A DNA stretch of 1,031 nt from Escherichia coli (GTDB lineage: Bacteria > Pseudomonadota > Gammaproteobacteria > Enterobacterales > Enterobacteriaceae): NCBI RefSeq assembly GCF_003334355.1, contig NZ_QOWP01000098.1. One strand, given 5' to 3'. Positions 1 through 1,031 of this stretch are shown piece by piece. Positions within the stretch are counted from its first letter, which is position 1, and every line of letters starts with the position of its first letter. The notes below the pieces were generated by a model, which worked only from the letters and a program-made list of their open reading frames with translations, was not told the origin of the DNA and did no database searches. Both the position numbers and the translations under genes were made by a program.

Positions 1-120
1 ATTGGTGCCCCCACCGGCGTGGCCTGTTCGGTGTGCCCCGGCGGAGTGACGTCCGGCCATCCGGTCAATCCCCTGCTCGGTGCAAAGGTCCTTCCCGGTG
101 AAACCGACATCGCCCTGCCC
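1..120 (+). other. C-terminal part of a PAAR-like domain (PAAR_RHS type) within the Rhs CDS; domain boundary approximate
   Basis: The segment IGAPTGVACSVCPGGVTSGHPVNPLLGAKVLPGETD has two Cys and one His in a Gly/Pro-rich context, consistent with the metal-binding cone of PAAR domains. It resembles the region just after the N-terminal PAAR motif of E. coli Rhs proteins. The start of the domain and of the gene should lie roughly 100 nt upstream of the window. Confidence 0.55.
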
Positions 121-1031
121 GCCCCGCTGCCGTTCATCCTCTCCCGCACCTACAGCAGTTACCGGACAAAAACGCCCGCGCCGGTGGGGAGCCTCGGCCC
201 CGGCTGGAAAATGCCTGCGGATATCCGCTTACAGCTGCGCGATAACACACTGATACTCAGTGATAACGGCGGCAGAAGCCTGTATTTTGAGCACCTGTTT
301 CCCGGTGAGGACGGTTACAGCCGCAGCGAGTCACTGTGGCTGGTGCGCGGCGGCGTCCTGAGACTGGATGAAGGTCACCGGCTGGCCGCACTCTGGCAGG
401 CGCTGCCGGAAGAACTCCGCTTAAGTCCGCATCGTTATCTGGCGACAAACAGTCCGCAGGGGCCGTGGTGGCTGCTCGGCTGGTGTGAGCGGGTGCCGGA
501 AGCGGATGAGGTGCTGCCTGCGCCGCTGCCGCCGTACCGGGTACTGACCGGGCTGGTGGACCGCTTCGGGCGCACACAGACGTTCCACCGCGAAGCCGCC
601 GGTGAATTCAGCGGCGAAATCACCGGCGTGACGGATGGTGCCGGGCGTCACTTCCGGCTGGTACTGACCACGCAGGCGCAGCGGGCAGAAGAAGCCCGGC
701 AGCAGGCCATTTCCGGCGGGACGGAACCGTCCGCTTTTCCTGATACCCTGCCGGGTTACACCGAATATGGCCGGGACAACGGCATCCGTCTGTCTGCCGT
801 GTGGCTGACGCACGACCCGGAATACCCGGAGAATTTACCTGCCGCGCCGCTGGTGCGCTATGGCTGGACGCCACGCGGCGAACTGGCGGTGGTGTATGAC
901 CGTAGTGGCAAACAGGTGCGCAGCTTTACTTACGATGATAAATACCGGGGCCGGATGGTGGCGCACCGTCACACGGGCCGGCCGGAAATCCGTTACCGTT
1001 ACGACAGCGACGGGCGGGTGACAGAACAGCT
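1..1031 (+). CDS. Rhs-family protein (PAAR-linked polymorphic toxin, probable T6SS effector), N-terminal region; partial CDS open at both ends, codon phase starts at nt 1
   Basis: Frame +1 is open for all 343 codons, which is very unlikely by chance over 1 kb. The translation carries hallmark Rhs N-terminal stretches (GAPTGVACSVCPGG, NPLLGAKVLPGETD, LPFILSRTYSSYRTKTPAPVG, GPWWLLGWCERVP, LPAPLPPYRVLTG, GEITGVTDGAGRHFRLVLTTQAQRAEEAR) and ends in YD-repeat motifs (RYRYDSDGRV). Codon usage (ctg, ccg, gcg, ggc) fits Enterobacteriaceae. The family is recognised from memory of E. coli Rhs proteins; the paralog (rhsA/B/C/D-like) cannot be assigned without a search. Confidence 0.9.
   Translation, partial: MGAPTGVACSVCPGGVTSGHPVNPLLGAKVLPGETDIALPAPLPFILSRTYSSYRTKTPAPVGSLGPGWKMPADIRLQLRDNTLILSDNGGRSLYFEHLFPGEDGYSRSESLWLVRGGVLRLDEGHRLAALWQALPEELRLSPHRYLATNSPQGPWWLLGWCERVPEADEVLPAPLPPYRVLTGLVDRFGRTQTFHREAAGEFSGEITGVTDGAGRHFRLVLTTQAQRAEEARQQAISGGTEPSAFPDTLPGYTEYGRDNGIRLSAVWLTHDPEYPENLPAAPLVRYGWTPRGELAVVYDRSGKQVRSFTYDDKYRGRMVAHRHTGRPEIRYRYDSDGRVTEQ
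880..939 (+). other. YD-repeat-like motif within the Rhs CDS (ELAVVYDRSGKQVRSFTYDD)
   Basis: YD dipeptides followed by R/G-rich turns fit the beta-hairpin YD/RHS repeat pattern. This is a protein-level repeat, not a DNA repeat. Confidence 0.5.
976..1031 (+). other. Canonical RHS/YD repeat within the Rhs CDS (GRPEIRYRYDSDGRVTEQ)
   Basis: RYRYDSDGRV matches the RHS repeat consensus RxxYxYDxxGR(L/V). This marks the start of the repeat shell that continues beyond the window. Confidence 0.7.

Follow-up and report, generated by a model that had tools for sequence, protein, structure and literature searches.

We examined a 1,031-nucleotide (nt) stretch of Escherichia coli DNA (assembly GCF_003334355.1, contig NZ_QOWP01000098.1), referred to below in its entirety as the window. 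A first-pass annotation made from the letters alone had described it as the 5′ portion of an Rhs polymorphic-toxin gene. The window is almost certainly codons 28–370 of a chromosomal rhs gene of the RhsA/B/C(F) subfamily, whose product would be a ~1,400-residue polymorphic toxin, and the part encoded here would form the N-terminal closure of the toxin container. The earlier description was right that this is the N-terminal part of an rhs gene; the first 81 nt of the gene are missing, and the window begins at codon 28. The rhs ("rearrangement hot spot", 1984) genes were among the earliest repeat families reported from E. coli, and the window is a known, correctly annotated piece of one such multi-copy toxin gene, with nothing novel inside it.

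Six-frame translation of the window revealed that all 343 codons of frame +1 (nt 1–1029) are open, in agreement with the 343-codon frame reported by the first-pass annotation. Frame +1 contains no stop codons, versus 4 to 15 in each of the other five frames (9 and 15 in the remaining plus-strand frames; 12, 6, and 4 in the minus-strand frames). When we simulated the window with a first-order Markov model, frame 1 was open by chance in 4 of 20,000 simulations. The guanine-plus-cytosine (GC) content at codon positions 1, 2, and 3 was 0.70, 0.53, and 0.73, a coding-like pattern. Overall GC content ranges from 60% to 69% along the window, well above the E. coli average of roughly 51%; high GC content is a long-known trait of rhs cores.

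The open reading frames (ORFs) in the window also include minus-strand frames of 130, 106, and 84 amino acids (aa), which could mean that the real feature is a gene in one of the other frames of either strand, or else a functional RNA. We regard this as extremely improbable. Frames of this kind are expected in DNA of 60–70% GC, and annotated genomes call only rhs at this position. Because the best NCBIfam match of the antisense ORFs, with an expectation value (E) of 0.064, was far below the cut-offs, we rejected them as artefacts of GC-rich sequence. A search of the window against Rfam returned no family with an E of 1 or better.

To place the window among known genes, we compared it by megablast with 5,426 complete E. 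coli genomes. It was present in 3,887 of these genomes (72%), at 12,456 places, with a median of 3 and a maximum of 8 places per genome; 2,464 records contained a match of at least 99% identity. Among the matches listed, all fall under genes annotated as rhsA, rhsB, rhsC, or "RHS element core protein". Two E. coli chromosomes were 100% identical to the window across its 1031 nt, at different loci: NZ_CP147048 (locus L001) and NZ_CM143727 (locus L002). In both loci, and in K-12 rhsA, rhsB, and rhsC, the window maps to nt 82–1112 of an rhs gene of ~4.2 kb.

Judged by its sequence, the window belongs to the RhsA/B/C(F) subfamily (rhsABCF of Wang, Zhao & Hill 1998, as summarised by Jackson et al. 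2009, PMC2935791), because its nucleotide identity in K-12 MG1655 is 99.3% to rhsA, 99.3% to rhsB, and 98.2% to rhsC, compared with 76.2% to rhsD. The window is thus nearly identical to the K-12 rhsA/B/C cores and clearly diverged from the rhsD/E subfamily. At the protein level it differs from K-12 RhsA/B/C, at the same position in the gene, by 4–7 amino acids (for example, A41 for G, L120/R121 for A/K, and G215 for W). K-12 RhsD, of the rhsDE subfamily, shares the architecture, including a 47-residue leader followed by a plug that starts PVNPLLGAKV. However, its window-equivalent region aligns with 13 gap openings, and an Asn precedes the presumptive cleavage-site Pro in RhsD, where the window protein has a His. 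The whole window corresponds to the "clade-specific" N-terminal domain of Jackson et al., whose sequence is shared by members of a subfamily but differs from one subfamily to the next (PMC2935791). The identity of just 76% to rhsD agrees with this.

Nine matches came from the plasmid collection (H26–H34; for example, NZ_CP069926.1 at 1660–2690). These were megabase-size or tiny non-mobilizable records. Several of them are 1–4.8 Mb in length, and a 5.2-kb Klebsiella oxytoca "plasmid" record carries an rhsB fragment that is 99.3% identical. The plasmid-filed records are probably chromosomal, mis-binned, or contaminant sequence. As they look like chromosomal sequence, we rejected a plasmid or mobile origin for the window.

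Family profiles gave the same assignment. The translated window matched the NCBIfam model RHS_core (NF041261) over its entire length (aa 1–343 to model positions 28–378 of 1261; E 6.7e-211, 703 bits). The curated cut-off of this model is 2000 bits, which the window, as a fragment, cannot reach; the full-length proteins that contain the identical window scored 2644.2 (L001) and 2643.6 bits (L002), above the cut-off. Pfam DUF6531 (PF20148) matched window aa 19–96 over the whole model (positions 1–74 of 74; E 2.4e-17). Together, these matches bear out the Rhs N-terminal signature claimed in the first-pass annotation. The YD-repeat signatures that it also claimed are visible by eye, in approximately the last 50 codons only (YDRSGKQV, YDDKYRGRMV, and YDSDGRVT), but the Pfam RHS_repeat matches inside the window (aa 291–342) are sub-threshold and individually insignificant (E about 1). 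With 50 residues added, the first significant RHS_repeat match appeared at protein aa 361–392 (E 1.3e-4), straddling the window end. Searching the extended ORF, as had been proposed, recovered both Rhs and YD-repeat profiles. YD_repeat_2x (TIGR01643) reached 141 bits in the L001 protein, spread across 6 stretches, and 133 bits in the L002 protein; Rhs_assc_core (TIGR03696), at aa 1170–1247, gave 82 and 80 bits, respectively.

By homology, the window appears to hold four parts: the tail of an N-terminal leader, a predicted self-cleavage site, the plug domain DUF6531, and the strands with which the β-cocoon begins (Table 1). When we searched the PDB with the window, it matched Tse5 of Pseudomonas aeruginosa (8cp6; phmmer E 2.6e-22) and RhsA of Pseudomonas protegens (7q97; E 1.1e-7). 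Window aa 21–158 align to Tse5-shell residues 1–143 (domain E 1.3e-17), a second block of alignment to Tse5 covers window aa 259–336 (E 6.6e-4), and the plug region aligns to RhsA residues 238–368. The first residues of the Tse5 shell (8cp6 chain B), PVNPMLGSKLLPEEVD (PVNPMLGSK), are aligned to the window sequence that starts at aa 21, PVNPLLGAKVLPGETD. At the same place, RhsA has STHPVHAATGAKV, which pairs with SGHPVNPLLGAKV in the window.

The context of window aa 20|21 is SGH|PVNPLLGAKV, and its His|Pro is aligned with the cleavage sites that were mapped in the two Pseudomonas proteins, K47|P48 in Tse5 (PMC10684867) and H304|P305 in RhsA (PMC8765631). Cleavage of the E. coli protein is accordingly a prediction from homology, between H47 and P48. 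In Tse5, the N-terminal plug consists of residues 48–124, which are the DUF6531 domain, and the 47-residue PAAR-like fragment that precedes it, Tse5-NT, is anchored inside the shell by its last 18 residues (30–47) (PMC10684867). The corresponding leader tail of the E. coli protein (aa 28–47) had no significant sequence match to Tse5-NT; we infer this part from the architecture. The first-pass annotation had treated the window as a conserved stretch without novel content. Nothing novel was found, but the stretch is not generic.

Table 1. Features of the 1,031-nt window, with window coordinates and the basis for each assignment
Feature	Position (nt)	Strand	Basis
Internal rhs core segment, codons 28–370	1..1031	+	Open frame 1; 100% DNA identity; RHS_core E 6.7e-211
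Last 20 residues (aa 28–47) of the predicted 47-residue N-terminal fragment	1..60	+	Position relative to the aligned cleavage site; description of Tse5-NT
Predicted N-terminal self-cleavage site, His47|Pro48	58..63 (scissile bond between nt 60 and 61)	+	Alignment to Tse5 and RhsA
DUF6531 N-terminal plug, predicted to cap the N-terminal opening of the cocoon	55..288	+	Pfam PF20148 E 2.4e-17; alignment to the Tse5 shell
First β-cocoon shell strands, with degenerate YD-type hairpins from ~nt 871	289..1031	+	RHS_core through position 378; second Tse5 block

Tse5 shares the layout of the E. coli protein: a 47-aa PAAR-like leader, a cleavage site (predicted in E. coli) before PVNP(M/L)LG(S/A)K, the plug, the YD cocoon, and an aspartyl-protease plug with the motif DPxG...DPxG. 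It is nonetheless a distant relative in which only the counterparts of window aa 21–158 and 259–336 align, two blocks that lie ~55 residues farther apart in the E. coli protein; Tse5 has a Lys before the cleavage-site Pro, where the E. coli protein has a His. P. protegens RhsA has the same His|Pro dipeptide and a plug ("cork") of the same fold family. However, its N-terminal region is 304 residues long, with a prePAAR, transmembrane helices, a full PAAR domain, and an anchor helix, compared with 47 residues in the E. coli protein.

The stretch between the two Tse5-aligned blocks (window nt 475–774, aa 159–258) contains ~100 residues, compared with ~45 in Tse5. A Gln/Ala-rich sequence, TTQAQRAEEARQQAISGG, sits within it. 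The segment may represent an insertion, specific to this subfamily, near the start of the cocoon.

We used the two identical copies to examine what follows the window. In L001, the gene is located between rpmE and yiiX, encodes 1394 aa, and is followed by a gene annotated "RHS element protein dsORF-f3" and a frameshifted insertion sequence (IS), IS1; priA is also among its neighbours. In L002, the gene occupies the site of K-12 rhsC, with ybfA on one side and ybfC on the other, encodes 1399 aa, and is followed by ybfC and ISAs1 elements; the neighbours also include kdp. The lengths of 1394 and 1399 aa agree with the protein of about 1400 aa expected in the first-pass annotation. In both contexts the ORF is intact beyond the window, extending 27 codons upstream to an ATG and downstream to the end of the 1394- or 1399-aa protein, and neither a stop codon nor a frameshift lies just outside the window. 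IS remnants are located just 3′ of the predicted toxin/immunity modules in both loci (a frameshifted IS1 at L001:13499–14191; ISAs1, the H-repeat, at L002:13911–16315). IS remnants beside Rhs modules are part of the classical description of Rhs elements.

The C-terminal ends of the two proteins differ. The L001 protein contains DPIGL at aa 1221 and PVNSMDPLGL at aa 1238–1247, followed by a 147-aa tip that matches Pfam DUF4329 (E 3e-15). This domain is called an RNase domain in a citing paper that credits the description to Ma et al. 2017 (PMC7216683). The L002 protein also contains DPIGL, followed at aa 1238–1247 (nt 12631–12660) by the variant PVQYIDSMGL, in which the Asp is kept and the Pro is replaced by Ser; its 152-aa tip had no Pfam match. 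Thus, the DPxGL-PxxxxDPxGL motif that the first-pass annotation expected is present in L001 (aa 1221–1247), while the second motif of L002 is a variant, IDSMGL. The expectation of a variable tip followed by a small gene, 3–4 kb downstream, proved correct: unrelated tips of ~150 aa are followed by dsORF-f3 (L001) or ybfC (L002), and the tip begins 2,630 nt past the window end, at a distance of 3.66 kb from where the window starts. The end of the gene is ~3.07 kb past the window end.

The L001 and L002 proteins are 100% identical over aa 1–400, 94–99% identical to aa 1200, and unrelated after that. Their tips also differ from those of the full-length K-12 rhsA–D genes (20–35% identity). In all, five mutually unrelated tips (20–35% identity; L001, L002, and K-12 RhsA, RhsB, and RhsC) lie behind windows that are at least 98% identical. 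Therefore, the window cannot tell its locus or its toxin; a piece of rhs core alone can be assigned to neither, since such near-identical copies sit at different chromosomal positions and end in no fewer than five unrelated tips.

As the loci that contain rhs genes are rich in fragments and pseudogenes (in K-12, ybfO, yibJ, ylbH, and ybbD), and IS1 and ISAs1 adjoin the genes in L001 and L002, we considered whether the copy from which the window derives is truncated, frameshifted, or otherwise pseudogenised. We find this very unlikely. The known orphan fragments are 3′ pieces of the core; ybfO, for instance, starts MWPDNRIARD..., far downstream of the 5′ region. In addition, the window has no stop or frameshift across its 343 codons, and both of the 100% identical contexts are intact genes.

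Comparison of the loci also revealed an apparent exchange of tips. The 3′ end of the L002 gene and the DNA that follows it (L002 12400–13800) are 99.8% identical over 1401 nt to the K-12 orphan module ybfO-ybfC, the variant PVQYIDSMGL being within this region. Neither the tip of K-12's own rhsC nor ybfB was found in L002 (L002:8920–13685 compared with the K-12 rhsC locus, L003 1584–8220). Thus, in strain CFIAFB20180511, the source of L002, a full-length rhs gene ends in a tip that is an orphan (ybfO) in K-12. From these alignments, the L002 gene looks like an rhsC core that was joined to ybfO-ybfC by a deletion through homologous recombination between the core and the downstream orphan fragment, which would have given it a new toxin/immunity pair. 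The L002 junction illustrates, in one specific case, the C-terminal displacement model (PMC2935791).

Searches of the window for DNA repeats recovered short two-copy matches only, which are not meaningful. These include an 18-nt direct repeat (89% identical; window 115–132 and 514–531) that encodes LPAPLP at aa 39–44 and 172–177 and is probably a chance or compositional effect. The window contains a single Chi octamer, GCTGGTGG, on the plus strand at 552–559 (expected count, 0.09). We rejected this site as a basis for the "hot spot", because at least one Chi occurred in 17 of 200 shuffles and its presence is not significant.

Taken with what is known of Tse5 and RhsA, these features best support the standard model of how such a protein would work. 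The YD-repeat cocoon would enclose the C-terminal toxin, and the DUF6531 plug encoded by the window would seal the N-terminal end of the cocoon, with the short 47-aa PAAR-like leader cut off before Pro48 by self-cleavage. At the far end of the cocoon, an aspartyl-protease plug (DPxGL-x17-DPxGL) would release the variable toxin of ~150 aa. The product of the small gene that follows rhs would neutralise the toxin in the producing cell. If Tse5 and RhsA are a guide, the protein would reach neighbouring bacteria on the spike of a type VI secretion system (T6SS). Because the core recurs in near-identical copies, a median of 3 per genome, it also provides sequence on which homologous recombination can act to exchange toxin tips.

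Several points weigh against this scheme. The H47|P48 cleavage is predicted by homology, N-terminal cleavage is dispensable for the activity of Tse5 (PMC10684867), and even in P. protegens RhsA the mechanism of N-terminal cleavage is unknown (PMC8765631). The intactness of this particular copy is presumed from the identical copies, whose tips differ. The match to PAAR is vestigial. A check against PAAR profiles, which the first-pass annotation had suggested, did not recover a full domain: in profile and PDB searches, no complete PAAR domain was found at the protein N terminus, where 47 residues precede the plug. The Pfam PAAR_motif (PF05488) aligned protein aa 2–20 to model positions 51–69 of 70 with a non-significant E of 0.2, and the PAAR proteins 9rce_c (E 0.018) and 4jiv_D (E 0.34) in the PDB matched through their own last repeat only. 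The PAAR-like stub lies mostly upstream of the window (27 codons, L001:8920–9000, plus window nt 1–60). The leader has the same length, 47 residues, as the Tse5 fragment that its authors call "PAAR-like", but there is no significant sequence match between the two.

The genomic neighbourhood also weighs against T6SS delivery. The 9 kb around the L001 and L002 genes, and the few kb of flank covered at the K-12 rhsA–D loci, where the neighbours are yibF, nikR, ybfA, and ybbP, contained no T6SS gene, whether vgrG, EagR, or another. Tse5, by contrast, is VgrG-linked and has been shown experimentally to be secreted by the T6SS. The missing vgrG/eag linkage lowers the likelihood of T6SS delivery, but such linkage is not obligatory for T6SS effectors.

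These observations raise the question of whether this is a genuine Rhs toxin gene whose product is not delivered by the T6SS, such that the locus is a silent reservoir of cores and tips or its product is exported or used in some other way. Three findings are consistent with this idea: no vgrG, EagR, or PAAR genes flank the gene at any of the six loci (L001, L002, and K-12 rhsA–D), PAAR is present as a stub only, and K-12, which has no T6SS, nevertheless retains this clade. In addition, an in-silico study of enterohaemorrhagic E. coli left it unclear which VgrG, if any, translocates RhsA/B/C (PMC7216683). Other evidence argues the opposite. Tse5, the closest relative with a solved structure, is built in the same way, and the T6SS secretes it on VgrG1c; the 94–100% identity of the cores between loci and strains, together with their intact ORFs, argues for maintained function. 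On balance, we consider a role apart from the T6SS unlikely, and we favour the reading of the window as the N-terminal closure of a polymorphic toxin that may be delivered by the T6SS.

As a discovery the window carries little weight, since the gene is correctly annotated in thousands of genomes. Its value lies in showing that the 5′ region of these genes is not featureless, as it encodes the plug and a predicted N-terminal cleavage site. Two further ideas strike us as long shots: that the unseen DNA downstream of this copy carries an undescribed toxin/immunity tip, or that proteins of the RhsA/B/C clade, which is not linked to vgrG and has a PAAR-like stub of 47 residues with a His|Pro site, are processed or exported independently of the T6SS. 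The window itself points to neither. If true, T6SS-independent processing or export would bear on the old question of what role Rhs proteins play in strains that lack a T6SS, such as K-12.

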